Assembly (NCBI GenBank): GCA_963729625.1
Contig: CAVSOU010000016.1
Span: forward strand, 1-64,000
Length of the DNA: 64,000 nucleotides
Source of the DNA: an uncultured bacterium
Lineage (GTDB): Bacteria; Chloroflexota; UBA5177; JANWHV01
Direction of reading: 5' to 3'
Shown here: piece after piece, positions 3-51,929 of the stretch
Layout: each line of letters opens with the position of its first letter
Position numbering within the stretch: position 1 is the stretch's first letter
Notes under the pieces: model-generated
The model's input: the letters and a program-made list of their open reading frames with translations, nothing else
What the model was told of the DNA's origin: nothing
The model's database searches: none
Position numbers and translations under genes: made by a program

Positions 3-302
3 AGCGTCCTCCAGCACATACGCGCGAAGATCATCGCGCACGGCTTCGGCATCCCACCGTGCTCCCAACAGCGGCCGCTGCACCCCTTGCGGCCCCAACT
101 CACCGATGGCCTCGGCTACCTGCCAACCGTTCTTGCGCTCCACCCATCCGAGCAACCCAGCCAGGAAGCGCCGCACCCGTCTCCGTACCTCGATCCGTCC
201 GAACCGATGGACAATCCGCTCGTGCAGTCGTTCCCACGCTGCCGTGCCCTGTTCCAAGACTGCATCTTCCGCCTCGTCACCCTGCCACCGCTCTGCGACC
301 AT
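3..302 (-). CDS. IS701-family transposase, N-terminal part (runs off window)
   Basis: Manual translation from ATG 302 (RBS GGGGAGGG): MVAERWQ...[44 protein letters not shown]...[14 protein letters not shown], a typical IS701 N-terminus. Not in the ORF track. Probable IS end CTACAGTCACATTT near 347-360. Confidence 0.85.
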
Positions 303-2045: not shown

Positions 2046-2377
2046 GTGGGTCTGGGGCCGACCAGCGCCACGACATCGGCACCTACGGCGCTCCGCGGGC
2101 GCACACCCTCATTGTTACCGTGTACACGCTCTACCCTGTGGGCACCGATTCTGTTCCATGGTAGGTAGATCGTCTGAGCAGACTGACGATGCCACTGCCG
2201 CCATGAGGGAACTGGAAAGCGTACTGCGCTGAAACGTGCACGGTGCGTTTGGGGAGGGGCCGACGGGACAGGGCTGCGCAAGCAACACCTCATGATTGAG
2301 CGGCTGATGGCCCGTACGCCGCGCGGCAGGCGGCGCTGGACGCGGTGCCAGACGTCCCTGGAGCGAACGCGCGAGTG

Positions 2378-3768
2378 TTAGGCACTCGTGAGGGCATACA
2401 CGACGAGCGGCTTGTTGTCCGACTCGGTCATAACCAGGCGTGAGCCCCCAGCCAGGCTGATAGCTGCTCGGCGTGGACCGTAGCCGGCGCGCGCCACGAA
2501 CATCGCTTGGCGAACGGTCTTGCCCTGCGCGCCGAGCACGGCGAGCTGCAGGTGCGCAATCAACACCGTCTGGTCCTGCAAGGCAATGCCATAGAGCGCG
2601 CTGAACGTCTGATGCGGGCCTCTGAGCGCGACGATGTTCAGAGTCGCGGAGCCACAGCCATTGGCATAGAGCGACCACTGTTCCAGCGCCACCTGGTGAA
2701 TCATGGACATGTCCAGGGTGGTGGGGTGCACATTGCAGGACACCGTCAGCGCGCGCAGGTCAACGGCCGTGCCACCGACGGTACTGACCGGAGGCTCGCT
2801 GGGAGCGAACACGCGATCGTAAAGCGTGGCGTGTCCGGACAGCTGCATGTCGTAGAGGACGCCATTGGCGTTTCCGGTGAAGCTGATTTGCACGATGCTG
2901 GCGCCGCTGATGCTGGCGCTGATCGGCACGCCGGGCTGACCCTGATTGGCCGTCACGCTCACGGTCGAGAACGGCTTGCTGTTCTGATCCAGGACGACGA
3001 GGTGCGCGGTGATCGTCTTGTTGTCGGAGTCGTCGGATACGCCGATCCTTGCGCTGAAAGTCCCGGTTGCGTCGGTCATGATCAGCTCCGCGATGCCGCA
3101 CGTATCGACGGCCAGGTAGGTGTCGCGCGACACGAGCTTGTGGGCGACAGTCAGATCCGCCGTGCCGAGATTGGCATTGCACAGGCCGACGACCGCGTCG
3201 GGAGAAACGGGGACGGGCGCGCCATTGGGGCTGCCGAAGTCCTGACGATCCGGATTGTGATGCGGCGCCACAGCAGTGGGAAGGAAGCTGAGGCCGGCCA
3301 CCAGCAGGTTGACGTTGGTATTCCCGGCATCCATGGTGAACGTCACGGTACGCCCGCCCGCCAGGTTGACCCAGAGTGGCTGAAGCCCGCTGCCGAGGTA
3401 GGTCAGACCAATCGCCTTGCGCAGCAAGTGGCCGCCGGCATCGAGCACGGGCAAACCCACCTGTGTGGGTAGGCTGCTATAGTCCGAGGAGTCGATCTGT
3501 CCGTAGCGGAGTGCCAGCGCACCCGTCGCGGTGGCTGCGACCTGTATCGTGACTTTGCTGCAACCACCCTGCAGCTCCAGGGCTGTCGTCGCGGAGATCG
3601 CGATCGCGCTGACTGTACTCGCCTGGGAGAGTGCGGCGGCATTGCAGTCGAGATGCGGGGCGCTCGCCGGCACCGGCACGCCGCCCAGCGGCACGCCGCC
3701 ACTGATTAACGGTGTGGCTGCGAGCGCCCGCGCGGTGCCGGACAGCTTGAGATTGTACAGGTATGGCC
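2378..3768 (-). pseudogene. Repeat-domain extracellular protein (NPCBM/NEW2-like beta-sandwich repeats), 5' truncated
   Basis: Repeated TFSARIGVSDD / TFSALYGIALQD...PISASISGASIVQI units; 5' end replaced by ISL3 sequence. Confidence 0.55.
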
Positions 3769-4240
3769 CGTGGCGCGACCAAGGCAGGCAGGCGCTCGGT
3801 AAAGATGCGACGCGGACACCAGCGGACGCGACAGACGAACCGGCGGACGGTAAGGAGGATAGTAACCGGGGTGCTGCCGACGCTAAGGTCCGTGATCGTG
3901 CGGCGGTAGCGACTGTGCATGCGGCGCGAGCGACACCGGCATACGGGGCAGCGCCCGCGTCGTGCACGCGCCTTCGCGACAACCTGGATGCCGTCAGCAG
4001 CCCAACTGATGTGCTCAATCTGGATATCGGTCAAACCAGGGAACAACATTGCCGTCAGCACGGTGTGCCTGCCTCTCTCCAGGAGAACCTGAAACCTGGA
4101 GCTTTAGGCTAGCGTTCCTGTGCGTAGCGGACCAGCAGAGCTGACAGCCGCACCTCTCAAGCGGCACGTGGCTCTATCCGCTGACTGCGGTCCTCTGGAA
4201 ACACCGGAGAGAACCCCGTCATCAAATATGCCCATGAACC
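3769..4240 (-). mobile_element. ISL3-family left end plus transposase N-terminal fragment (CDS 4061 to ~3769)
   Basis: CPVCRCRSRRMHSRYRRTITDL...VRRFVC....CPRRIFTERLP zinc finger; end-like GGTTCATGGGCATATTTGATG from 4240. Confidence 0.8.
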
Positions 4241-4592
4241 AGAATCTGGCCCCAATGGAGCGGATAACGGCATTCGAATCTGGCCCCACCCAAGGCATAG
4301 CTCGGTACCCTCATCGCGATGGAAACGATGAAGGGGGCGAGAGAAGGGAATGCTCAGGGTGGAGGAAATCGAGACAATCCGGCGGGCCTACCATATAGAG
4401 AAAAGGAGCATCCGGGCGATTAGCCGGGAGCAGGGCCATCACCGGCGGGTGATTCGGGAAGCCATTGTGGGCACGCAGCCGTCGCCCCGACGCTACCGGC
4501 AGACGGGGCCGCGCAAGAAGTGGCGCGTGGATGTGGTGGCACCGCTGATCGACGCCTGGCTGCAGGCCGACCAGGTGGCCCCACCCAAGCAG
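4241..4592 (+). mobile_element. istA: IS21-family left end and istA N-terminal fragment
   Basis: GAATCTGGCCCCA repeated at ~4242 and ~4276; MLRVEEIETIRRAYHIEKRSIRAISRE...IDAWLQADQVAPPKQR. Confidence 0.75.
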
Positions 4593-5210
4593 CGAGTGTT
4601 CCAGATTGCCTGCGGGTACGAGGACCAGAACGATGCCGACAGTCTGCGCGACGACCCCTTGCTCAAGCTAGTCTGTGGGCGTCTGCCGGAGAGTGGTCCT
4701 GCCCTGGCCGGCCAGTCCACCTTCAGCCGCCTGGAGAACAGCGTGGACCGGCGAGCCTGTCGCCACCTGGCCCACGCCCTCCTGGAGGTGTACCTGGTGG
4801 CACGGGAGCAGGACGGCGTGCCTCGGCACATTCTGCTGGATATCGACAGCACCGACGACCCGACACACGGGCACCAGGAAGGGACAGCCTACCATGGCTA
4901 CTACCGCCAGCACCAGTACTACCCGCTGCTCGTCTTCGACGGGGAGACCGACCAGCTGATCACCGCCATCCTGCGCCCGGGCACGGTGCACGGCAGTCGC
5001 GGGGTCATCAGTGTGCTGCGCATGCTGGTCCAGGCCTTTCGGCAGCGCTGGCCCGGCGTACAGGTGGAGATCCGTGCTGACGCGGCGGGCGCCACACCCC
5101 GTATCTACCGCTTCTGCGAACGGCACCAGATCACCTCTACCCTCGGTCTGGGCACCAATGCCCGCTTGGCCGCCCTGGCCGCTCCCCTGCTCGCGCAGGC
5201 CCAGGCCCTG
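4590..5210 (+). pseudogene. IS1380-family transposase internal fragment fused in frame to istA fragment
   Basis: QRVFQIACGYEDQNDADSLRDDP, LDIDSTDDPTHGHQEG..YHGYY, LRPG..H, IRADA. Confidence 0.85.
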
Positions 5211-5512
5211 GAGTTGATCCGGTTCGGTGGAGGGATTGAGACTAGGTGGTTAGTCGCAAGGTACCTCCTTTCGTCGCGCGGAGAAAAGGCCGTGCTGGCA
5301 CGTCCGCGCTGCCTGTTTCGGTCGGAGGTGTGACCCTTCCGGCACCCCCTGCTGCGTCGTCGGTGCGGCGCGGGGGACGGTGATGGACGATCTGAACGCT
5401 GGCGCCCCGCGCCGCCCTCCAGCCTAGCAGGGGGGCCCGCCGGCGGGTCAACCCCGCTCCCTGCACGACGGCGCCGCTTTTGCCGGGCACGGGGAGGAGA
5501 CGGCGGCCGGTG

Positions 5513-5668
5513 GGTGCCTCCCTGCGGCTCCAGCTCATCAAGATCGGCGGCCGGGTGCGGGAAGGGCTGCAGCGCATCGGCCTGCACCTGGCCAGCAGCC
5601 ATCCCGGCCAGGTGCTCTGGGCGCTGCTCGCCATCCCACCTCCCAGCCGCGCACCGCCGCGCCGCTAA
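5513..5668 (+). pseudogene. IS1380-family transposase C-terminal fragment
   Basis: SLRLQLIKIGGRVRE...LHLASSHP. Confidence 0.75.
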
Positions 5669-33865: not shown

Positions 33866-34019
33866 ATCGACGTTGAGCGGTGCCGCCGCAGCGCGCGCCG
33901 AATAGCGCCCCTCGCGCTGCCCCGGCGGCCCGCCTGGCGGATGGCCATGGCGGCGAACGGTGAGGAGGCCACCAGCCGCGTCGACAGTCATGCCGCCTGC
34001 AAGTCCAGCGCAGCTTGAG

Positions 34020-34275
34020 ATCCGGGCGTGGCGATGACAATGTTGTCGAGGGATACCGCACATTGCAGGGGCCGTCTGCGCGTCCTGAGGAGTCGTGGGA
34101 GCACGACCTGGTGGCCGAATCCTCGGGAATGATCCCTGTCGGTATCGTGAATCGCAAGCGTGGTCTGGGTGCGTACCAAGTCCATCGCACTGATCAGTTC
34201 GCTCATCACGGTGTGTGGAAGAATCTTGGAGAGGGAACGTATGTGGTCAGCCTTGAGCCGACCACGAACTGGTCC
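34020..34275 (+). pseudogene. Aldose-epimerase/DUF4432-like fragment
   Basis: VWKNLGEGTYVVSLEPTTN. Confidence 0.55.
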
Positions 34276-34284
34276 TGGTCGCCT

Positions 34285-34686
34285 ACCATACACGACTTTG
34301 GCGTGGCGTCGGCTAGCCCGTCAGAGGGAGTCGACTACCCCGACGTTGCCCGGGATGTCGCCGAAGCGGTGTCGAGAGGAGAAGAGGAGCGGGCCATCCT
34401 CGTGTGCGGCACGGGCATCGGCATGGCGATCACGGCCAACAAGGTGCCTGGTGTGCGCGCTGCACAAGCGCACGACGTCTATTCAGCGCAACGAGCGCGC
34501 AAGAGCAATGACGCCCAGATCTTGGCCCTGGGAGCGCGGGTCATCGGGCTGGAACTCGCGAAGTCGATCGTGGATGCCTGGCTAGAGTCCGAGTTCGCGG
34601 GCGGTGCGTCGGCGCACAAAGTCGAGAAGATCAAACGGGTCGATGCAGACTATCGCTCCAGCGCAACTCGACCAGCTTCTCGTTGA
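34285..34686 (+). pseudogene. rpiB: RpiB/LacAB-family sugar-phosphate isomerase lacking N-terminus
   Basis: DYPDVA, ILVCGTGIGMAITANKVPGVRAA, SNDAQILALGARVIG; the N-terminal DHAG motif is missing. Confidence 0.8.
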
Positions 34687-34712
34687 GCCAGTGAGGGTGG
34701 AGCAACGGCTAC

Positions 34713-35336
34713 TTGGTCCCGCAGACTGGCTATTGGCCCGTGCTCAGGCTGAACTACGCTTCCATGGGCTGGAGCAGTCCGGACACTCGACTTGAGATCA
34801 AGGCGCTCGCTGCACGTTCCGTTCGAGACGTGGTGGACGAGGCCGGTCGGATCGATGTTCCGACCTGGCTGGATGAGCGGCAGGCGGAGTGCGCACCGGA
34901 CCCAGATGACCCGGACGAAGCTGACGCACTGGAGGCGCTCATTAGCCGGTGGCCAAGTGAGGCGGCGCCCAAACCCGACTTCTGGATCCTGAGTGCGGAG
35001 TTTCCCTCCCCGTGGCTCGAGCTACGACTGGTGCCAACGACCATTGCGCGGCACGTGCCGGTGTTCTTCAACTACGGCAATGGCCCGGCGCCGTGCGAGC
35101 ATGTCGCCGTGCTACAGGAATGGTATCGGCGCTACGGTGCCGAAATCGTGACCAGCGCCGGCGACACGGTGGAGATGACGGTCAGCCGCCTACCACGCTC
35201 GCGCAAGGCAGCCTGGACGCTCGCCTTTGACCACTATGCCTACTGTCCCGATCTGGTTCTGCAAGGCACGCAGACGATTGCGCGACTGGCCGCCGTCCTG
35301 CTCGACTGCGACAAGTGGTACTTCTGGTGGGATTAG
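34713..35336 (+). CDS. DUF4253-like protein, possibly 5' truncated
   Basis: WYRRYGAEIV, HYAYCPD, C-terminal WYFWWD. Confidence 0.75.
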   Translation: MVPQTGYWPVLRLNYASMGWSSPDTRLEIKALAARSVRDVVDEAGRIDVPTWLDERQAECAPDPDDPDEADALEALISRWPSEAAPKPDFWILSAEFPSPWLELRLVPTTIARHVPVFFNYGNGPAPCEHVAVLQEWYRRYGAEIVTSAGDTVEMTVSRLPRSRKAAWTLAFDHYAYCPDLVLQGTQTIARLAAVLLDCDKWYFWWD

Positions 35337-35705
35337 GCACCACTACCTGCGGACGCAGGTCTTAGGCGGAGCCGTGCGGGTGGAACTCGACGAGACGGTA
35401 GAGCAAGTCGCGCAGAGTCTTGCCGCACTCCGGGCACTGCATGTGCGCGTCAAGGCGAATGCCGCAGCCAGGGCAGTACCACGTACCTGCAACATCTGAA
35501 CTGGAGCGATCAAGCGGGATGCTTGCTCTGGCTCGGCAGAGCCGTACCGCCGCTCCAGCTCCTTTCGCAGCTGTTGAGACAAGGCATTCGCGCAGCAGGT
35601 GATGGGCGTGCACGCGCCCCGTGGTCAGCCTCCCGCCATCTCACGCGTGTACCGAGGCGCGACCGGATCATGCTCCGACAGCACCCATTCGTCGGATAGG
35701 TCTCA

Positions 35706-36737
35706 TTACTTGCTCGATAGAGGAGGCGACGTTGAATCGCGTACGACCAGCCTGGGCATGAACAGAGGTGGTGCTGTGACCACCGGTCCCGCCATGGCAC
35801 GCAGTAGGAGCTCGGTGGCGGCAGTCATCATGCCGGAAACGTCGATGTGAACCGTGGTCAAGGGAGGCCCTAATTCTGCGGCGCCAACGATGTCGTCAAA
35901 CCCGACGAGAGAGAGGTCTCGTGGCACCGACAATCTACGTTCCTTTGCTGCCCTGAGTACGCCTATGGCCATGAGATCGTTTGTCGCGAAGATGGCAGTA
36001 GGCGGCGCAGGAAGCTCGAACAGATCGTGCGCTGCGACGCGGCCGCCGTCAATCGTCGGGAAAGCCGTGTGGATGAACGCTGGATCGAGCGGCAAACCTG
36101 CGCGCGCCATGCCCGTGCGGAAGCCCAACAAGCGCAACGAGTGTCCCAGAGACCGTTCGGGTTCTGCACCATGCATGACGATGGCCAGGCGCCGGTGCCC
36201 CAGAGCCACCAGATGTTCCGCCACTTGACGTCCGCCTGCGGAAAAATCCAGGCCAACGCTTGGCACGAGATCCACTCCCTGCTCGTCCCACATGCACCAC
36301 ACAACAGGCAGCTTGGCCGGCACGAGCAGGCGAACAGTGTCGGACAACAGGCCTCCCGGCAGGGCAAGGATGCCGTCGACCCGGCGCGCAACGAGATCGG
36401 CTAGCAGTTCCTGGCCGAGCTGTACGTCACGATCCGTATTGACGCAGAATACACGATAGTCAGCATGATGCGCCACCCGTTCGACGACTTGTGCTACGGC
36501 GCCATAGAAGGGGTTAGCAATGTCGGCCACGATCAGACCGATCGTTCGTGTTCGCTGAGTGACAAGGCCCCGCGCAATCAGATTGGGTTGGTAGCCGAGT
36601 TCCTCCGCGCAACGGATGATCCGTTCGCGCGTCGCATCGCTGATCGAGCCTCTGCCCGACAGCGCATAAGACACCGTCGATACCGTCACGCCGGTTGCCT
36701 TCGCGATGTCTTGCAGGGTAATCACAATCAGGCCCAT
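35706..36737 (-). CDS. LacI-family transcriptional regulator
   Basis: TLQDIAKATGVTVSTVSYALS, YQPN, TAIFATNDLMAIG, SLVGFDD. Confidence 0.95.
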   Translation of the reverse strand: MGLIVITLQDIAKATGVTVSTVSYALSGRGSISDATRERIIRCAEELGYQPNLIARGLVTQRTRTIGLIVADIANPFYGAVAQVVERVAHHADYRVFCVNTDRDVQLGQELLADLVARRVDGILALPGGLLSDTVRLLVPAKLPVVWCMWDEQGVDLVPSVGLDFSAGGRQVAEHLVALGHRRLAIVMHGAEPERSLGHSLRLLGFRTGMARAGLPLDPAFIHTAFPTIDGGRVAAHDLFELPAPPTAIFATNDLMAIGVLRAAKERRLSVPRDLSLVGFDDIVGAAELGPPLTTVHIDVSGMMTAATELLLRAMAGPVVTAPPLFMPRLVVRDSTSPPLSSK

Positions 36738-36772
36738 CCCACCAGCAAGACCATTGATCCGCGACCGGCGAG

Positions 36773-37159
36773 CGAAATCAATCGTTTCACTTTGCAGTAT
36801 GAGCTGACGTTACAGCTAACACATCCCTAACGTCAAATCTGAGGCGAGCCAGCCGGCCAGCGAGCCGATAGGGGCATATAGAACAATTTGGGCACAAAGC
36901 TCTCGCTGGCAGAAGCAGATTGGAGAGTTTGGACGCCCTTGCAACCCGCCCCGGTCAGATGCCTGTGCCACGCGCCCCGCTGGGGGTCGGCGCGATGCCC
37001 GCCGCGACCGAACCTCGTCACTCATGAGACACGGTGCAACTGTCGCCCCTGCTCGCGGGTGGGCGGCTGGCAGTTCGAGGTGTGTATCGCTGTGCTTGAC
37101 ACGCAGTCTTGAGCCGATGTAATGTAAGCCTATGTCGCGAGGTGAAGCGTTTGATTTCG
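36773..37159. promoter_or_regulatory. Two LacI-type operators in the divergent intergenic region
   Basis: CGAAATCAATCGTTTCAC (36773-36790) and GTGAAGCGTTTGATTTCG (37142-37159) are 16/18 inverted copies with a central CG. Confidence 0.65.
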
Positions 37160-37282
37160 TGCTGCGTAGGCGGGATCAGGCAGTTTTCACCGTGTGTGGC
37201 AGGGCAGTGCGTTGGCGGGTATTGAGCAGGACATCGCCATCGCCCTGAAGGTGGCGACGTCCTGCACGGTCTAGGAGTCAAG

Positions 37283-45171: not shown

Positions 45172-45645
45172 ATGGCCATCCGATTTGGCGTCTTCGTGCC
45201 TCAGGGCTGGCGCATGGATCTGGTGGGGATTGACGACCCCGTCGAACAGTACGAAACGATGACCCGCGTCGCTCAAGCTGCTGACCGCGAACCTGGCTGG
45301 GACTCCATCTGGGTGTTCGACCATTTCCATACCGTACCCACACCCGAGATTGAGACGACGTTCGAGTGCTGGACGATCACCGCGACCCTAGCGCGTGATA
45401 CCAGCCGCGTGAAGATCGGCCAGATGGTCACCTGCAACGGCTACCGCAATCCAGCCCTCTACGCCAAGCTGGCCTCAACCGTCGATGTGGCCAGCCATGG
45501 CCGACTCTATGCCGGCATCGGCGCCGGGTGGTACGAGCACGAGTGGCGTGCCTACGGCTATGGCTTTCCCGAGACGCGCGAGCGCCTGGCCCGACTGGCC
45601 GAAGCGTGCGAGATCATTCACCGCATGTGGACGGAAGCCTACCCA
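45172..45645 (+). pseudogene. LLM-class F420-dependent oxidoreductase, 3' truncated
   Basis: FGVFVPQGW, SIWVFDHF, GQMVTCNGYRNP, GIGAGWYEHE. Confidence 0.88.
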
Positions 45646-46674
45646 GTCGTGGGCAAGGGCCGCAGCAGCGCCCGCTCGGCCTGCCAGCGTGCTTCCCGGG
45701 TCAGATTGCGTTGGCGCACGATCTCCGCCAGGAAGCGGGCGTAGCTGACGCGGTCGACAAAGTCGCGACTGCCGCGCACGCGCAACGCCTGGTCGACGGC
45801 CAGCTTGAGCCGGTGGTGCGCCTGTTCCACGTCGCCGTTTTCGTGCGCTTCGCCGGCGTTGTTGACCGCCGCTTCCATACCGTAGTGCGCCAGCAAGGCC
45901 CGGTAGCGATCTGTGAACTCCGCCTGGCCGGCGACGCTCAGTGGGCGCACCGCCGTGCCCATATGGTCTGTCTTGTGCCGCTGGGGCACGCCGCCGAGTT
46001 GCCACAGGCAGTACTCGAGCCCTTCGGCCAAGGACTCGAAGCTCTCGCTGACACAAATGTGCGCCGCCTCCACGTTCGAGTAGGTGAGCACCAGGTGGAA
46101 CACCTCGTGCGGAAAGGGCAGGCCGCCCAGCGTCACCTGCAGGCTGCTCATGTGGGTGAAATCGGACTCGGCGAGATCGCCGGGCCGATGCACCTGCGCG
46201 AACATCACCTCCCGCTCCGGTCCGGCCACCGCGCGCCAGGTGGCCATGTGCCGCTGCACGGTGCGGAGCTGGCCCTCCTGGTAGCGGCCTGGGTGCTTGG
46301 CCTGCAAGAGGGCAAAGAGCGTCGTCGCCTGCAAGGCGGGATCACGCTCCAGTGCCGCCACCACCCAGCCCCACTCGCTGGCAAACGGATCGGGCCGTGT
46401 TCGATGCTGCCGTGGCCGCTTGAGTTGACTGGGCAGCTTGCCGACCTGCTCGTACTTGCGCGCGGTTCGCTCACTCATCCCGGCCCGCGCGGCCGCCACG
46501 ACCTGCGTGGCTCCTTTGCTGCGTTCCTTCTCCAAGATCCACACCTCAGCGTCTTTCTTCATGCCGTCCTCCGTACTTGGAGGACGCCACAGCCTGGTCA
46601 TCCGGGCAACCTCCGTGCCCGACTGACCGGCAACTTTCAAAGACGCCACCGGCAAATCTAATTGTCGTCCATCA
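45646..46674 (-). mobile_element. istA: IS21-family element B (left end plus istA from 46562, 3' truncated), inserted in istB of element A
   Basis: End TGATGGACGACAATTAGATTTGCCGGT...AAGTTGCCGGT; RTRPDPF, ESDFT, KTDH, HENGDVEQ. Confidence 0.8.
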
Positions 46675-47131
46675 GCCGGCCGGCGGCATCGAGGTCCTCG
46701 ACCAGGGCGGACAGGCTGGTGAAGAAGGCGGAGTAGCCGGCTTCCAGGGCTAGCCAGGCTAAGGATCCGGCCACGTGGGTTTTTCCGACCCCGGGAGGAC
46801 CGAGCAGGACAATACTGGTGGCCGTCTGGACGAAGGAGAGGCCGGCCAGTTCGCGCACCTGACGCTCGGAGAGCCCGGGCTGGAAGGAGAAGTCGAAGGC
46901 GTCCAGCGTCTTGCGGGCGGGCAGGTGGGCCGCTTGGCTGCGCCGCAGGAGCACGCGCTGACGACGCGCCTGGGCTTCGACGGCCAGGGCCCGGTAGAGG
47001 AAGGTCTCATACGAGACCTGCTGCTGGCGCGCTTCATCCAGGAGAGTCGGCAAGGCTTGGCCGAGATGGCGCAGTCCAAGTTGCACGAGCGGCGAGCTGC
47101 TCTCGGCGAGAAAGGCGTCCATCAGCGCCAC
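46675..47131 (-). pseudogene. istB: IS21 IstB ATPase, truncated after Walker A
   Basis: KTLDAFDFSFQP, LLGPPGVGKTH. Confidence 0.88.
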
Positions 47132-47670
47132 CCTTCCACGCCGTAGAGGGCATCATAGGCGGCAGTCGGCCGCTGGAGCACGGTCGGTGCCGGGAGCTGA
47201 TGCGCCAAGGGTTGCTGCTGACGGCGCAGCGATGTGGCCGGCAGGACGTCGCGGAACTGCTCAGGATGGGTAACGATCTCCCCCGAGCGGGCCTGCTTGG
47301 GGAGCTGGGCCAGCTGCTCGCCGTGCCGCCAGATGGAGAGGTGGGCGCCATGGTCACGCACCTGCACCGTGCTGCCTGCCGCGCTGGCCGCGGAGGGCAG
47401 ACCGTAGAGGACGCCGTCGAAGGAGAGATAGCCGTCCCAACTTACGCGGCGCTCCTCGGTCGCAAAGCGCTCCCAGGCGAAGGCCGCCGGCAACGGGCGC
47501 AGCTGCTCGGCGGCAAGCAGGTCACAGGGACGCTGTCGGGTGGTGCGGTGCACACGCCCATTGCGCCGATCACACCAGGCCAGGGCCTGCAGATTGAGGT
47601 CATCCAGGTCGCCAAAGTGCGCCCCGGGCCAGAGACTCCGTTTGACGACCCCAATCGTGCGCTCGATCTT
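47122..47670 (-). pseudogene. istA: IS21 element A istA C-terminal part
   Basis: KIERTIGVVK, LDDLN, RVHRTT, RRVSWDGYLSFDGVLY. Confidence 0.9.
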
Positions 47671-47676
47671 CCCCTT

Positions 47677-48011
47677 GGACAAAGCTAGGCAATGCACCGG
47701 ATGGCACTGGTGTGGCAGAAACCTTCAGCGTCACGCACCCATTCCACCCCTGGCATGGGCGCAGCTACGGCGTGCTGGCCCAGAAGTACCGCTGGGGTGA
47801 TCAGCGCGTGTACTTCCAGGATGAGCAGGACCGCCTGCGGTCGCTCCCGCTCGCCTGGACCAGTCTGGCCGCACCAGACCCATTCGTGGCCCGTGCCGCG
47901 GGTCGCGCGTTCTTCCGGCCTGCCGATCTGCTGGCGGTTGCCCTGCTTTGCCAGCGGCTAGACAGCGTCTTATGCACAGGGCGAGGCCACGATGAGCAGT
48001 CAAAGGTGTAA
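47677..48011 (+). CDS. DUF5372 (Y4bD/Y4pK-like) protein; 5' end predicted to be supplied by 51073-51088 on circularisation
   Basis: VTHPFHPWHG, WGDQRV, SLPLAWTS, DPF, AGRAFFR; frame is open back to the attL core. Confidence 0.75.
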
Positions 48012-48048
48012 GCTCAATTATGCCGCATGTGTAAAGGGAATTATGCCG
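48006..48048 (+). repeat. Tandem direct repeat inside the LSR element
   Basis: TGTAAGCTCAATTATGCCG and TGTAAAGGGAATTATGCCG. Confidence 0.75.
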
Positions 48049-48177
48049 TCCGGTGGCAGGGACCGTGAGACTTGCCCGCAGCCACTCTACCCGATCGTCG
48101 CTGCCTGTTCTCAGGAAACTTGCGAGAATGGTCCTCGCAATGGCCACGATGTGCTTGGCTCTCGGGGGCGATTCTGC

Positions 48178-48206
48178 TTGCACAACGGCACCATGATGGT
48201 CATAAT
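48178..48206 (+). promoter_or_regulatory. Sigma70-like promoter for the HTH-small ORF-LSR operon
   Basis: TTGCAC-N17-CATAAT. Confidence 0.6.
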
Positions 48207-48240
48207 GAGTTTGACATATCGGCCGTTGCAGGAGAGTCGC

Positions 48241-48756
48241 ATGCCTACCACCACCACTGCTGATGATGAGAAAGTCGCCGCTCTGCGCCTCGCTCACGCC
48301 CTGCATCATCAGGCTGCCCTGGTGACGGACCCGGCGTTTGGCGCAGGACAGTCGTTCTTTGATGCACGGGATCTGGTGCAAGTGAAGTACGAAATGTTGC
48401 GCCGGGTGCACGTCGACGGCCATAGCGTGAGCCAGGCGGCTCACGCCTTCGGGTTTTCCCGACCCTCATTCTATGCGGCACAGCGGGCCTGGCTGGCCGC
48501 CGGACTGGCTGGCCTGATCCCTCAGCGGCCTGGGCCACGCCGCGCGTCCAAGTTGGCACCCGCCTTGATGGCGTTTGTGGACGGCTGTTTGCACCGTGAG
48601 CCCACCTTGCGGGCACGCGATCTTGCCGCTCGACTCGCGGAGCAATTCGGCGTGCAGGTGCACCCCCGGAGCATTGAGCGGGCCTTGGTACGCCGGGGAA
48701 ACCCGTTGCTGGCGCGGCTGCCGCGCCAGTTCCGAGAGGAGGAGCTGAGTCCATGA
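48241..48756 (+). CDS. HTH (homeodomain-like/winged-helix) protein
   Basis: FFDARDLVQVKYEMLRRV, AAHAFGFSRPSFY, GLIPQRPGPR..KL, VHPRSIERAL. Confidence 0.85.
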   Translation: MPTTTTADDEKVAALRLAHALHHQAALVTDPAFGAGQSFFDARDLVQVKYEMLRRVHVDGHSVSQAAHAFGFSRPSFYAAQRAWLAAGLAGLIPQRPGPRRASKLAPALMAFVDGCLHREPTLRARDLAARLAEQFGVQVHPRSIERALVRRGNPLLARLPRQFREEELSP

Positions 48757-49007
48757 GCGCTGTCTATGAAACCTTGCGCGGTGCTGCCCAGCTGCAGCAG
48801 CTGCCCGTCGCCTTCGCCCGCGATTGGGAGCTGCTGCGGCGGCAGGGTATGACGGCCTGGTTGCAGGCGTCTCCGGCGCTCGCACCGCCGACCCAGCTCA
48901 CGTGGTCCCTGGCCAAGCCAGCCGGTGCGCCCGCGTGCGTGTTGCCTGCTCTGGCGCACCTGCTCAGCGCGATGATTCTCGCTCAGCGAGGGGAGCACGC
49001 CCCATGA
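48753..49007 (+). CDS. Small hypothetical protein (RDF candidate)
   Basis: YETLRGAA...LLRRQGMTAW; ATGA overlaps with both neighbours. Confidence 0.7.
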   Translation: MSAVYETLRGAAQLQQLPVAFARDWELLRRQGMTAWLQASPALAPPTQLTWSLAKPAGAPACVLPALAHLLSAMILAQRGEHAP

Positions 49008-51076
49008 TGGCTGCACAGGAGAAAGTCAGTGCCCAGCATCTTGCCCGTATGGCCTACCTGTATGTCCGCCAAAGCACGGTGCGCCAAGTGTTTGAGAACA
49101 CGGAAAGCACGGTGCGGCAGTATGCGCTGCGCGAGCGGGCCATCGCACTGGGGTGGCCTCCAGAGCGCATCGTCGTCGTAGACAGTGACTTGGGGCAGTC
49201 TGCAGCCTCGGCGGTCGACCGCGCCGGCTTCCAGACGCTTGTCGCCGAGGTCGGCTTGGGGCATGTCGGCATAGTCCTTGGTCTGGAAGTGTCGCGCCTG
49301 GCGCGCAACAACAGTGACTGGCATCACTTGCTGGAGATCTGCGCCTTGACCGAGACCTTGATCCTGGATGAGGACGGCATCTATGATCCCGGTCACTTCA
49401 ACGATCGCCTCTTGCTCGGCTTGAAAGGCACGATGAGTGAGGCCGAGCTCCATGTCTTGCACGCCCGGCTTCGTGGCGGCATTCTGAGCAAGGCCCGGCG
49501 AGGAGAATTGCCGATCCCGTTGCCGATTGGTTTTGTGCGCACCGAAAACGGTACGGTGGTGCTCGACCCTGACGCGCAGATCCAACACGCCGTCCGGCTG
49601 TTCTTCGCCACGTTCGCGCGCACCGGCTCCGCCTGGACGACGGTCAAGGTATTCCGAGAGCAGGGCTTGCTCTTCCCGCGTCGTCTGCACAGCGGCCCCC
49701 ATAAGGGTGAAGTGCTCTGGGCGCCGCTCTTGCATAGCACCTGCCTGCATCTCTTGCACAACCCACGCTATGCCGGGGCGTCCTTTTTTGGTCGCACCCG
49801 CCAGCACAAACTGGGAGACGGCCGGGTGCGCAGTCGCCTTCTGCCGCAGGACCACTGGCTGGCCCTGCATCAGAATGCGCATGCCGGCTACATCAGCTGG
49901 GCCGACTTTGAACAGAATCGGGCGCGTCTGCTCGAGAATGCCCAGGCGTGCGGCCAGGACCGGCGACACGGGCCGCCACGGGAGGGGCCGGCGCTGCTGC
50001 AGGGTCTCGTCCTGTGCGGCCGGTGCGGGGAGCGGATGACGGTGCGTTATCATCGGCACCACGCGCAGCTCATGCCAAGCTACCTCTGCCAGCGTGTCGG
50101 GATTGAGCACGGCGACCATCTCTGCCAGGTCGTGCCGGGGGCACGTCTGGACCAGTTGATCGGGGAGTTGTTGGTCGCTACGATGACCCCCGCCAGCGTG
50201 GAGGTCGCACTCGCCGTGCAAGCGGAAGTCGCGCAGGACGTGGAAAACACGGACCGCCTGCGCTTGCTGCAGGTAGAGCGCGCTCGCTACGACGCCGATC
50301 TCGCAGCCCGGCGCTTCCGCCAGGTGGATCCTGACAATCGCCTGGTCGCGGCCGTCCTGGAAGCGGAGTGGAACGAGCAATTGCGCCTGCTCACAGAGGC
50401 CCAGGCGACGTACGATCAGCAGTGCCAGGCCGATCGGCAACAGATCAGCGCGCACGACCGGGCGGCCCTCGTGGAGCTGACCGCGGACTTTGCCCGTCTC
50501 TGGCGTGACCCGCACACTCCCGACCGCGAGCGCAAACGCATCGCACGTCTTCTCCTCGCGGATGTGACCATCACCAAACAGGACGACCATATCCTGGCCC
50601 AAGTCCGCTTCGTCGGCGGCGCAACCCGCACACTGCAGGTTCCCTTGAGCCATGACTCCAGCCAGTTCCACACCACCGACCCGGCTATCGTGGCCCAGAT
50701 AGACGACCTGCTCGACCAGTACACGGATGCCGGTGTGGCGCAGGTGCTCAATGAACGTGGCCTCCAGACCTTCACGGGGCGCCCATTCACCGCCACCCGC
50801 ATCACCAGCCTGCGAAAGCGGTGCCACCTACGGGACCGCTACACCAGATTGCGCGCGGCAGGCTTGTTGACCCGCCGCGAGATGGCCGCGATTCTGGGCA
50901 TCTCGACTGCCACGGTGCCGGTCTGGCGAGACCAGGGTACGCTCCGCGCCTACACCTATAATGATCAGGGTGCCTGCCTCTATGAGCCGACCGGCAACTG
51001 CCCGCCGCAGAAATACATCACCCGCTACCGTACGCGAAGAATCCTACAGCAGCAGCATGTTGGAGGTGCAGTATGA
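49004..51076 (+). CDS. Large serine recombinase (resolvase, recombinase, zinc ribbon, coiled coil, HTH), 690 aa
   Basis: AYLYVRQST (catalytic Ser), DSDLGQS, EVSRLARN, LLQGLVLCGRCG, VDPDNRLVA. Confidence 0.95.
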   Translation: MMAAQEKVSAQHLARMAYLYVRQSTVRQVFENTESTVRQYALRERAIALGWPPERIVVVDSDLGQSAASAVDRAGFQTLVAEVGLGHVGIVLGLEVSRLARNNSDWHHLLEICALTETLILDEDGIYDPGHFNDRLLLGLKGTMSEAELHVLHARLRGGILSKARRGELPIPLPIGFVRTENGTVVLDPDAQIQHAVRLFFATFARTGSAWTTVKVFREQGLLFPRRLHSGPHKGEVLWAPLLHSTCLHLLHNPRYAGASFFGRTRQHKLGDGRVRSRLLPQDHWLALHQNAHAGYISWADFEQNRARLLENAQACGQDRRHGPPREGPALLQGLVLCGRCGERMTVRYHRHHAQLMPSYLCQRVGIEHGDHLCQVVPGARLDQLIGELLVATMTPASVEVALAVQAEVAQDVENTDRLRLLQVERARYDADLAARRFRQVDPDNRLVAAVLEAEWNEQLRLLTEAQATYDQQCQADRQQISAHDRAALVELTADFARLWRDPHTPDRERKRIARLLLADVTITKQDDHILAQVRFVGGATRTLQVPLSHDSSQFHTTDPAIVAQIDDLLDQYTDAGVAQVLNERGLQTFTGRPFTATRITSLRKRCHLRDRYTRLRAAGLLTRREMAAILGISTATVPVWRDQGTLRAYTYNDQGACLYEPTGNCPPQKYITRYRTRRILQQQHVGGAV

Positions 51077-51082
51077 GACCCA

Positions 51083-51766
51083 CCCCTTCGTCTGGGGGGT
51101 GTAGGGCTTACAGACGCGAATGCTCAGGCCCACGGAGGCGGCAAAGTCGGCAAAGCGGGCATTCCAGACTGGGATCTGGCCGTCCATGTCGACCAGCACG
51201 CTCTTCATGCGGTCCGTCAGCGCCACCTGCGGCAGACCGCCGAAGTACTCGCAGGCCCGCATCAGGCCGCGAATCAAGGTCGATGTATCACAGCGCTTGC
51301 TGAACTGCACAAAGCGCATGCGAGAATAACCCAGCACGGCCGAGAACCCGTAGAGCTTGTGTGTCGTCCCCTCTCGCTCGTAGACAAACTCGCCCCAATC
51401 GAACTGTAGTTGCTCCCCCGGTCCCGTCTCGTACCGCACCACCGGCTGGTGCCCGGCCGTCCCCAGTCGAAAGGGCTGCACAAAGTCCTTCAAAATGGTG
51501 ATGCTGCCCGTATACCCCTGCGCCTGCAGCCGCTCGCGCATCGTCTCACAGTTATAGAGATGATCCTCGCGCAGCCAGGCCATGATCTGCTCCTTATAGG
51601 GATCCAGCTTCGACCGCCGCCGCGGCCATGCTGCTGGGGACGGCGCACCACGCAGGTACTTGCGTACCGTGTTGCGCGAATGTTGGAGTTCCCTGGCACT
51701 CGCCCGGATCGGTTTCCCTTCCGTGGCCAGTCCCAGTATCTTGTTCACGGTCCCACTCCTTAGCAA
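51083..51766 (-). pseudogene. istA: IS21 element A istA N-terminal part
   Basis: SRNTVRKYL, SKLDPYK, RYETGPGEQLQFDWG, LGYSR, LTDRMK, CKPYTPQTKG. Confidence 0.92.
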
Positions 51767-51823
51767 GATTCCATCACCCTTCTCACCTGGTTCTTTGTGG
51801 AGATAAGGGTCATGGTTGGTTCA

Positions 51824-51877
51824 GGGGTGGGTCAACTCTTTCGGCGATCCAGGGTCAAGTCTACGCCGGCCCGGGCA
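51824..51877 (-). repeat. IS21 element A left end
   Basis: TGCCCGGGCCGGCGTAGACTTGACCC...GAGTTGACCCACCCC (TG start, repeated TTGACCC). Confidence 0.65.
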
Positions 51878-51929
51878 GGTGGCCGTTGCGGCGGCAGCAG
51901 GGGAAGCACTCGCTGCCACTGCGCCTCGC

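Follow-up and report, generated by a model that had tools for sequence, protein, structure and literature searches.

A small serine recombinase transposon with a DUF5372 gene that may be assembled only on excision

The subject of this report is a small mobile element in the DNA of an uncultured bacterium of the phylum Chloroflexota (UBA5177; JANWHV01). The whole stretch analysed, hereafter the window, comprises the first 64,000 nucleotides of the forward strand of contig CAVSOU010000016.1 (assembly GCA_963729625.1). At positions 47677–51088 (+) the window carries an element of 3,412 bp with four genes on the same strand, in the order DUF5372, a helix-turn-helix (HTH) protein, a small ORF (open reading frame) and a large serine recombinase (LSR). 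ATGA overlaps at 48753 and 49004 link the HTH ORF, the small ORF and the LSR, while a third ATGA lies at 51073 on the stop codon of the LSR, with GGAGG (51062–51066) 6 nt upstream of it. The hexamer CCCCTT stands at 47671–47676 and again at 51083–51088. An earlier note, written by a model from the letters of the window, had described these three overlaps and a ribosome-binding site (RBS) before the last of them, and all are present.

The LSR ORF is intact while the element is integrated, and the split ORF is that of DUF5372. The recombinase matches Pfam PF00239, PF07508 and PF13408, as well as a PHROG integrase (5e-40), and its residues R22, Q23 and S24 are invariant in 27/27 aligned sequences; DUF4368 is not among its Pfam matches. 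The small ORF has no match in Pfam, NCBIfam or PHROGs.

The ORF opened by the ATG at 51073 has 16 nt left inside the element. Once the ends are joined in silico, it runs in frame into 47677 onwards, and the fused DUF5372 ORF consists of 5 + 111 = 116 stop-free codons, exactly the in-frame joining at CCCCTT that the earlier note had put forward. The joined site, also foreseen there, is 46 bp long and is composed of GGTGCA (51065–51070), 16 nt, TT, 16 nt and TGCACC (47693–47698). An attP is expected to be an imperfect palindrome of about 40–50 bp around a central dinucleotide, and this holds both for the window and for the mirrored columns of 30 family junctions. In the integrated state, only about 35 nt of element DNA lie 5' of the DUF5372 domain, and the DUF5372 frame, followed 5' into the flank, reaches a TGA at 47643 with no start codon between.

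Table 1. Features of the element and of its interrupted target in the window.
Feature	Position	Strand	Basis or remark
istA C-terminal part, begins KGKIER	47122..47676	-	Pfam Mu-transpos_C_2
TT crossover dinucleotide, left copy (attL core)	47675..47676	+	CCCCTT common to both ends; TT here in 29/30 family junctions
DUF5372 gene body	47676..48011	+	Open from junction codon TGG 47676; internal GTG 47712; stop 48009-48011
Left (P') arm of joined site, ends TGCACC; also codons 6-13 of the fused DUF5372 leader	47677..47698	+	Mirrors right arm
Two direct repeats ending AATTATGCCG, spaced 23 bp, operator-like	48006..48048	+	Repeat search
Sigma-70-type promoter, predicted, reads into HTH/small ORF/LSR	48179..48206	+	Consensus scan; TTGACA/CATAAT in relatives
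HTH protein, 171 aa	48241..48756	+	Pfam HTH_32/HTH_28/HTH_29
Small ORF, 84 aa, translational coupling on both sides (predicted)	48753..49007	+	ATGA overlaps
Large serine recombinase, 690 aa	49004..51076	+	Resolvase, Recombinase, Zn_ribbon_recom and C-terminal HTH_17
Fused DUF5372 ORF, Shine-Dalgarno GGAGG and start ATG; ATG overlaps LSR stop	51062..51075	+	Sequence reading; in-frame start here or 3 nt further on in 30/30 relatives
Right (P) arm GGTGCAGT...CCTT, including right TT core 51087-51088	51065..51088	+	Family arm alignment; contig match in run X3 ends at 51088
istA N-terminal part (interrupted IS21 target)	51089..51766	-	Pfam rve reaches profile position 102 of 102 at the junction

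The same geometry recurs throughout the family. An LSR-based scan of one genome per species yielded 75 loci from many phyla. DUF5372, HTH and LSR genes lie in this order on one strand in 59 of them, and many of the other 16 end before the expected DUF5372 position. We located 57 right ends and 55 left ends, both being found in 40 loci (L004, L060 and L073 were dropped because of an unconvincing right anchor), and merging junctions at least 90% identical reduced the 40 loci to 30 non-redundant ones. The right ends show a conserved arm (G)AGGTGCAGT followed by ATG, about 9 nt and CCTT, whose position is independent of the LSR stop; the left ends begin with TT, mostly GG, about 9 nt and (G)TCAAyTrCAC. 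Column counts over the 30 in-silico junctions reveal the palindrome, with positions -4..7 mirroring 38..49 around the central TT. The G at -2 is kept on the right arm only (23/30 versus 6/30 at the mirrored position).

In all 30 non-redundant genome loci, reading from the right-end start codon meets no stop before it enters the DUF5372 domain; stops interrupt frame +1 in 21/30 and frame +2 in 24/30 junctions, and the fused frame in 0/30. Twelve further copies from whole genomes and plasmids, including families with CG or TG cores, the copy from pNGR234a and a Paraburkholderia copy also residing in an IS21 istA, are all in frame. Two of the twelve correspond to loci already counted and a single element accounts for three, so that eight represent new non-redundant elements. 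With the S. meliloti 1021 pSymA copy, which is in frame too, the total comes to 39/39 non-redundant relatives having both ends, far above the one in three that the earlier note had named as refuting its proposal.

The way in which the start codon is kept is instructive. Across the 30 loci, arm position 8 holds ATG in 21 and GTG in one, and position 11 holds ATG in four and TTG in another four. The eight elements starting at position 11 carry CTG, CAC or CAG at position 8, and the start is regained 3 nt downstream in the same frame. The distance from the start to the domain is 48, 51 or 60 nt in the 30 loci and 48, 51, 54 or 60 nt once the further copies are included, always a multiple of three. 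The LSR stop lies from -24 to +8 nt relative to the right-end start, and, with respect to the arm, each of the three possible frames is used by the LSR of some elements (12, 16 and 2 of the 30); conservation of the right arm is thus not due to LSR coding. Translational coupling of DUF5372 to the LSR appears plausible from this layout. Such a geometry, recurring in all both-ended relatives while the other frames are mostly closed, is more than chance.

Apparent deviations were few. The only left end out of frame belongs to L067, which is off by one base; its LSR is also split between frames, and we therefore regard it as a decayed copy. L071 was flagged by its tblastn offset, and its translation still enters the domain, the frameshift lying further downstream in the gene. 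A frameshifted "type B" seemed to exist in a multi-copy Acidobacteriota metagenome-assembled genome, and we rejected it as an artefact of the similarity of the target sites to one another: the anchor-based boundary moves the TT one repeat inward, whereupon both supposed types are in frame.

Several members deserve a comment of their own. Cores other than TT were found as CG in three copies of one complete genome (among them L110 and L111 on G063:C1) and as TG in L118, with arms and fused frame kept; the former genome, G063, also has two element copies arranged head to head, 1.2 kb apart. The pSymA member L200 (NC_003037.1, about 424972–428289) is apparently intact at 3,316 bp, having an uninterrupted LSR and a 107-aa fused ORF, and sits in an IS21-like transposase gene; like the copy of S. 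fredii NGR234 on pNGR234a, it puts an intact element at hand in a non-pathogenic laboratory rhizobium. In three other loci, elements are nested or lie next to each other: the LSR gene of L072 (1405–4741) is interrupted by about 2.5 kb bearing an inverted pair of LSR-like and HTH-like genes, that of L042 (1170–5700) is split by about 2.5 kb, and in L052 (1552–3468) a second LSR, 35% identical, ends about 330 nt 5' of DUF5372.

Left ends from metagenomes extend this picture. Scanning metagenome contigs with DUF5372 as the anchor, we obtained 80 loci with 76 usable left ends (L169 was too short, while L122, L174 and L193 had low scores), 59 of which were non-redundant. In 59/59, the junction codon (TGG in 44) and the domain share one reading frame, and the leader of about 20 codons is stop-free in all 59, just as none is broken among the both-ended relatives (0/39). 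As many as 41/59 leaders lack any ATG, GTG or TTG, and no internal start codon for DUF5372 is conserved in position among the compared elements. Such open frames with few internal starts, seen over the 59 + 30 left ends, suggest that the leader is coding from the first base of the element, usually without a start site of its own. Gene calls in databases place the DUF5372 start erratically: within the domain itself, at one leader codon or another, or a long way out in the flank.

Transcription signals also lie apart from DUF5372. The promoter that the earlier note had placed near 48178 corresponds to a promoter-like site at 48179–48206, the only + strand match in an intergenic stretch (consensus scan; 3 matches versus 0.4 expected from shuffles). 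Among the DUF5372–HTH spacers of 29 non-redundant elements, the most shared hexamers are TTGACA and CATAAT, each found in 19/29, and GGCATAAT occurs in 14/29; L034 has an 11/12 promoter match at the same relative place. This TTGACA/CATAAT promoter is situated 3' of DUF5372 and points away from it, and the consensus scan gave no promoter match at the element ends in the window. The promoter being internal, the element differs from the Tn4451 type, where -35 and -10 halves on opposite ends are joined by circularisation. In the integrated state, DUF5372 thus has its only evident promoter on its 3' side, and what lies beyond the gene is a transposase gene in antisense orientation.

As a side observation, the repeats just 3' of DUF5372 (48006–48048) end in ATTATGCC(G), the reverse complement of which, GGCATAAT, overlaps the -10 hexamer (48199–48206), and both sequences recur in the spacers of relatives. 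Together, the repeats and the complement at the -10 resemble a set of operators through which the element could regulate itself, with the HTH protein as a possible regulator.

Comparison of occupied and empty sites allowed us to check the boundaries. The pNGR234a member is L079 (element 2257–5576, 3,320 bp; 33951–37270 region of the plasmid), and its two flanks are 3,322 nt apart in pNGR234a; the same flanks are exactly 2 nt apart in nine other plasmid records, where the coding sequence of an intact ISNCY-family transposase is annotated. In pSF25509a, the empty site reads left flank, TT, right flank, which confirms precise insertion at TT, with no duplication beyond the core, for the pNGR234a member (Sinorhizobium plasmids). 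Dozens of copies on Sinorhizobium plasmids match the L079 query only between the predicted ends. For the window, indirect support comes from the istA frame, which is continuous across the flanks (...PQT followed by KGKIER); its own genome has no uninterrupted copy of the target IS21, and both element copies, on contigs C16 and C9, are surrounded by one and the same interrupted IS21.

Sequencing runs provided further evidence. Contigs of run X1 are 100% identical to the window element and have different flanks from 47675 and from 51090; an identical element with other flanks is a sign of recent mobility. A relative's contig from run X3 stops matching exactly at 51088. With regard to the X1 site itself, its left flank matches contig C7 of the window's own genome exactly (L078, G000:C7 579094–579210), and a version of the right flank with three mismatches follows 54 nt further on. 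Between these matches there is a TT...TT-bounded stretch with a 38-nt motif repeated 1.1 kb upstream, which is hard to reconcile with a simple insertion.

To look for the joined form, we derived a right-arm matrix from the genome loci and used it to score the 32 nt 5' of each left TT. Scores of 73/74 metagenome loci ranged from -12.7 to -67.7, consistent with target flanks, while L167 scored +22.6; the joined form was sought only through the DUF5372-anchored protein search, and 1/74 is therefore not an estimate of frequency. On the L167 contig (1,822 nt), the order is LSR C-terminus, AAGGAG, 4 nt, ATG, right arm, TT, left arm, in-frame DUF5372, HTH gene and LSR residues 1–135. Its first 124 nt encode the LSR C-terminus (YEPPGDD...), with a tblastx match to the LSR 3' ends of L034, L114 and L120. 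L167 is the joined configuration in real assembled data.

The element is inserted antisense within the istA gene of an IS21 insertion sequence (IS), exactly at the codons of the catalytic-Glu motif. Across the family, opposite-strand ORFs of the flanks are continuous and meet at [K/N]-x-x-[V/I/A/C]-E. Pfam assigned rve to 12 flank contexts, mostly ending at the junction, DDE_Tnp_IS66 to one, rve_2/rve_3 to one and Mu-transpos_C_2 to two more, while four showed a transposase-type HTH only. Exceptions include a tyrosine-integrase gene (L018), a DUF222 gene (L019) and several flanks without a match, and the attB consensus is weak at the DNA level. These readings indicate a multi-targeting family that is strongly biased to the catalytic-Glu region of DDE transposase genes and always inserts antisense. 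No empty copy of its target IS was found in G063 either. The element family is sporadic in the window's phylum (PF17342, the Pfam family of DUF5372, in 18/401 genomes) but abundant on rhizobial plasmids (LSR matches in 440 plasmid records).

Some details of the neighbourhood may be added here. The whole composite of IS21 plus element has a second copy on contig C9 of the same genome (G000:C9 7191–13683) with 99.9% identity, followed there by a further insertion of about 1.3 kb. The target IS21 of the window itself belongs to a nest (45639–47131 and 51044–51878), its istB (46658–47131) being truncated by another IstA-like ORF (45639–46655). For the HTH protein of the element (48241–48756), NCBIfam shows partial similarity to IS630 and IS481 transposases, namely to their N-terminal DNA-binding part; genes of this very kind are those into which the element inserts.

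The DUF5372 protein of the window matches PF17342 with an E-value of 2.7e-20 and 72.6 bits against a gathering cut-off of 25; it has no match in NCBIfam or PHROGs and no sequence match among solved structures. An AlphaFold2 model (48-sequence alignment, predicted local distance difference test score 87.5) shows a five-stranded SH3/KOW-like barrel at residues 14–64 followed by two helices, with a poorly ordered leader. The fold resembles generic SH3/KOW/Tudor-like barrels such as NdhS and KOW domains (best Z 5.6, root-mean-square deviation 1.7, 47 residues aligned); Foldseek E-values were no better than 3e-3, and the ESM Atlas returned only DUF5372 clusters. Invariant residues concentrate in an H-P-F-H-P motif.

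The data show the anatomy and its conservation, the precise TT boundaries, one natural joined site and the bias to the catalytic-Glu region of DDE transposase genes, and on this basis we propose the following scenario. The element would be a small non-replicative LSR transposon whose DUF5372 gene carries attP within its 5' end. On integration, the DUF5372 body would be left at the extreme left end, while its RBS, start codon and first five codons would be placed 3.4 kb away at the extreme right end. Excision by attL x attR recombination at the TT core would join the Shine-Dalgarno (SD) sequence, the ATG and the five codons to the body. In the circle, the internal promoter at 48179–48206 would then transcribe HTH, small ORF, LSR and finally DUF5372 as one operon, with DUF5372 translated by coupling to the LSR, so that the full-length protein of 116 aa would mark the excised state. 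Assembly of the DUF5372 gene by excision, with attP inside the gene, is the explanation that we favour as a whole and hold to be probable, and we infer with similar assurance that the protein is likely made only, or mainly, from the circle. As to its function, an excised circle that does not replicate must re-insert, and a role in the integration phase would therefore be the most coherent one: DUF5372 might oppose an excision factor expressed alongside it, or aid the LSR in capturing a degenerate target, so that the circle re-inserts. This last step is a guess, and a rather doubtful one.

A number of observations weigh against assembly of the gene by excision. One competing explanation is that DUF5372 is an ordinary gene started inside the left end in both states (at GTG 47712 in the window), with the right-end ATG being a by-product of fixed arm geometry and sequence. 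Indeed, this in-frame GTG is used by public gene callers (P0001, 99 aa) and may leave room for some translation in the integrated state if a transcript enters from the flank. Some internal ATG, GTG or TTG also follows the junction codon in 18/59 metagenome and 5/30 genome elements; the starts in nine of the 18 include a TTG made by the conserved arm itself. Moreover, the conserved recombinase-binding arm contains the right-end ATG as well as some of the SD-like GAGG, and their conservation is for this reason not wholly independent evidence for translation. The consensus scan recovered a promoter in only two of the four elements scanned (the window and L034) and not in L079 or L007. On the other hand, an ordinary gene does not account for internal starts that are never conserved in position and are missing altogether from 41/59 leaders, for leaders that are never broken by stops 5' of such starts (0/59; 0/39), or for leader lengths that change only by multiples of three, with lost right-end starts compensated in frame. 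It would also have no room for a promoter upstream within the element, while the conserved promoter points away and the called N-termini of database proteins are erratic. Overall, we regard an ordinary gene as improbable. What the earlier note had said about the integrated gene needs a correction in part: DUF5372 has no evident promoter of its own, as stated there, and shows no conserved start and a stop-free leader, but a possible internal start is available in the window and in a minority of relatives.

The joined template might also be something other than a circle. The L167 contig, at its length of 1,822 nt, fits a head-to-tail tandem dimer as well as a circle and could derive from the former, in which case the fused ORF would be real, but read from a tandem or a plasmid-borne joined form that senses no state. 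Looking for the circles expected by the earlier note yielded this one assembled joined site, and the contigs of the four runs compared with the window included none, although contigs cannot show absence; no RNA run is among those carrying the element. Nevertheless, single copies flanked by target DNA make up 73/74 metagenome loci with upstream sequence and all genome loci, and LSR chemistry gives a circle from attL x attR, which makes a tandem template very improbable. It may be supposed, too, that DUF5372 is an excision (directionality) factor supplied in the integrated state by read-through from the flank or in trans by other copies, the junction frame merely boosting its synthesis after excision. 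The directionality factors known for LSRs are small and differ widely in structure, and DUF5372 is strictly linked to this LSR clade (59/75 loci in order). Yet a factor needed before excision would sit where it is least expressible when integrated, and its high output from the circle would oppose re-integration of a circle that does not replicate. The flank, moreover, changes from one site to the next and is antisense to a transposase gene. We consider this explanation unlikely and would guess that it fits the layout less well than a role in the integration phase does. Keeping all of this in mind, the interpretation given in the earlier note, namely a gene assembled by excision, is supported at the level of sequence.

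If such a scenario is true, these elements offer a natural recombination-gated switch in bacteria, in which a protein gene is assembled by excision and disassembled by integration, and a simple answer to the question of how a minimal LSR transposon tells the inserted from the free state. The family defined here is large and has known ends, a 46-bp attP, a degenerate target and an accessory protein with a possible part in controlling directionality, which makes it interesting for serine-integrase tools. Its preference for transposase genes suggests that such a mobile element lives as a parasite on insertion sequences and inactivates them. It is tempting to go further and to imagine a widespread hyperparasitic family of LSR transposons, present in many phyla and on hundreds of rhizobial plasmids including pNGR234a and pSymA of S. 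meliloti 1021, which homes into and inactivates the DDE transposases of several IS families at the DNA for their catalytic Glu. The attP-split gene would then serve as a topological sensor, and DUF5372, made only from the circle, would switch the recombinase from excision to integration. We put forward this complete picture tentatively, giving it somewhat less than an even chance.

Our search of the literature on DUF5372, on y4bD/y4pK/y4bA/y4pH and on serine recombinases in transposase genes found no description of the element or of its ends, target and split gene; subscription journals were mostly outside its coverage, and an older account is possible. A survey of LSRs (10.1101/2021.11.05.467528) describes multi-targeting LSRs with DUF4368, and the present family does not occur in the text examined. 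The y4bA-D and y4pH-K ORFs of pNGR234a ("Y4bD/Y4pK family", DUF5372) belong to the same element family, known as annotation only; L079 carries DUF5372, HTH, an ORF annotated "transposase" and a recombinase there, and its fused frame is in frame.

Among known systems, Tn4451/Tn4453 (TnpX) are similar in being small LSR transposons whose end-joining makes an expression signal; Lyras and Rood reportedly found in 2000 that joining the ends assembles a promoter for the recombinase. Unlike in these transposons, the promoter of the present element is internal, the assembled item would be coding sequence (SD, ATG and five codons plus the body) and the target is a transposase-gene motif. The circle-forming IS911, IS30 and IS21 likewise have junction promoters, which give a transient signal favouring integration of the non-replicating circle; their DDE transposases, however, assemble promoter halves and no coding sequence.

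Expression across attP that depends on the joined state is also found in ICEclc and ICEKp1, where a promoter at one end (Pcirc and P3'end, respectively) serves a gene at the opposite end only once the element is circular; the same source refers to the Tn4451 junction promoter (PMC13023037). In contrast to our family, those are conjugative elements with tyrosine recombinases, and the driven gene, int, keeps its own start, so that no ORF is split. Besides the Tn4451 junction promoter, the closest precedent is given by the SSV1-type ("suicidal") integrases of archaeal viruses and plasmids. Their att site falls within one of the element's ORFs, which integration divides and which is whole only in the circle, and the arrangement is called exclusive to archaea (PMC8371274). 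In that case it is the gene of the tyrosine integrase that becomes split, whereas here a bacterial LSR stays intact and the accessory DUF5372 is parted from its RBS, start and promoter. The principle of an att site in a gene is thus already known, this design having so far been described only for archaeal tyrosine integrases; what appears to be new is its putative use on an accessory gene of a bacterial LSR transposon, together with homing into transposase genes.

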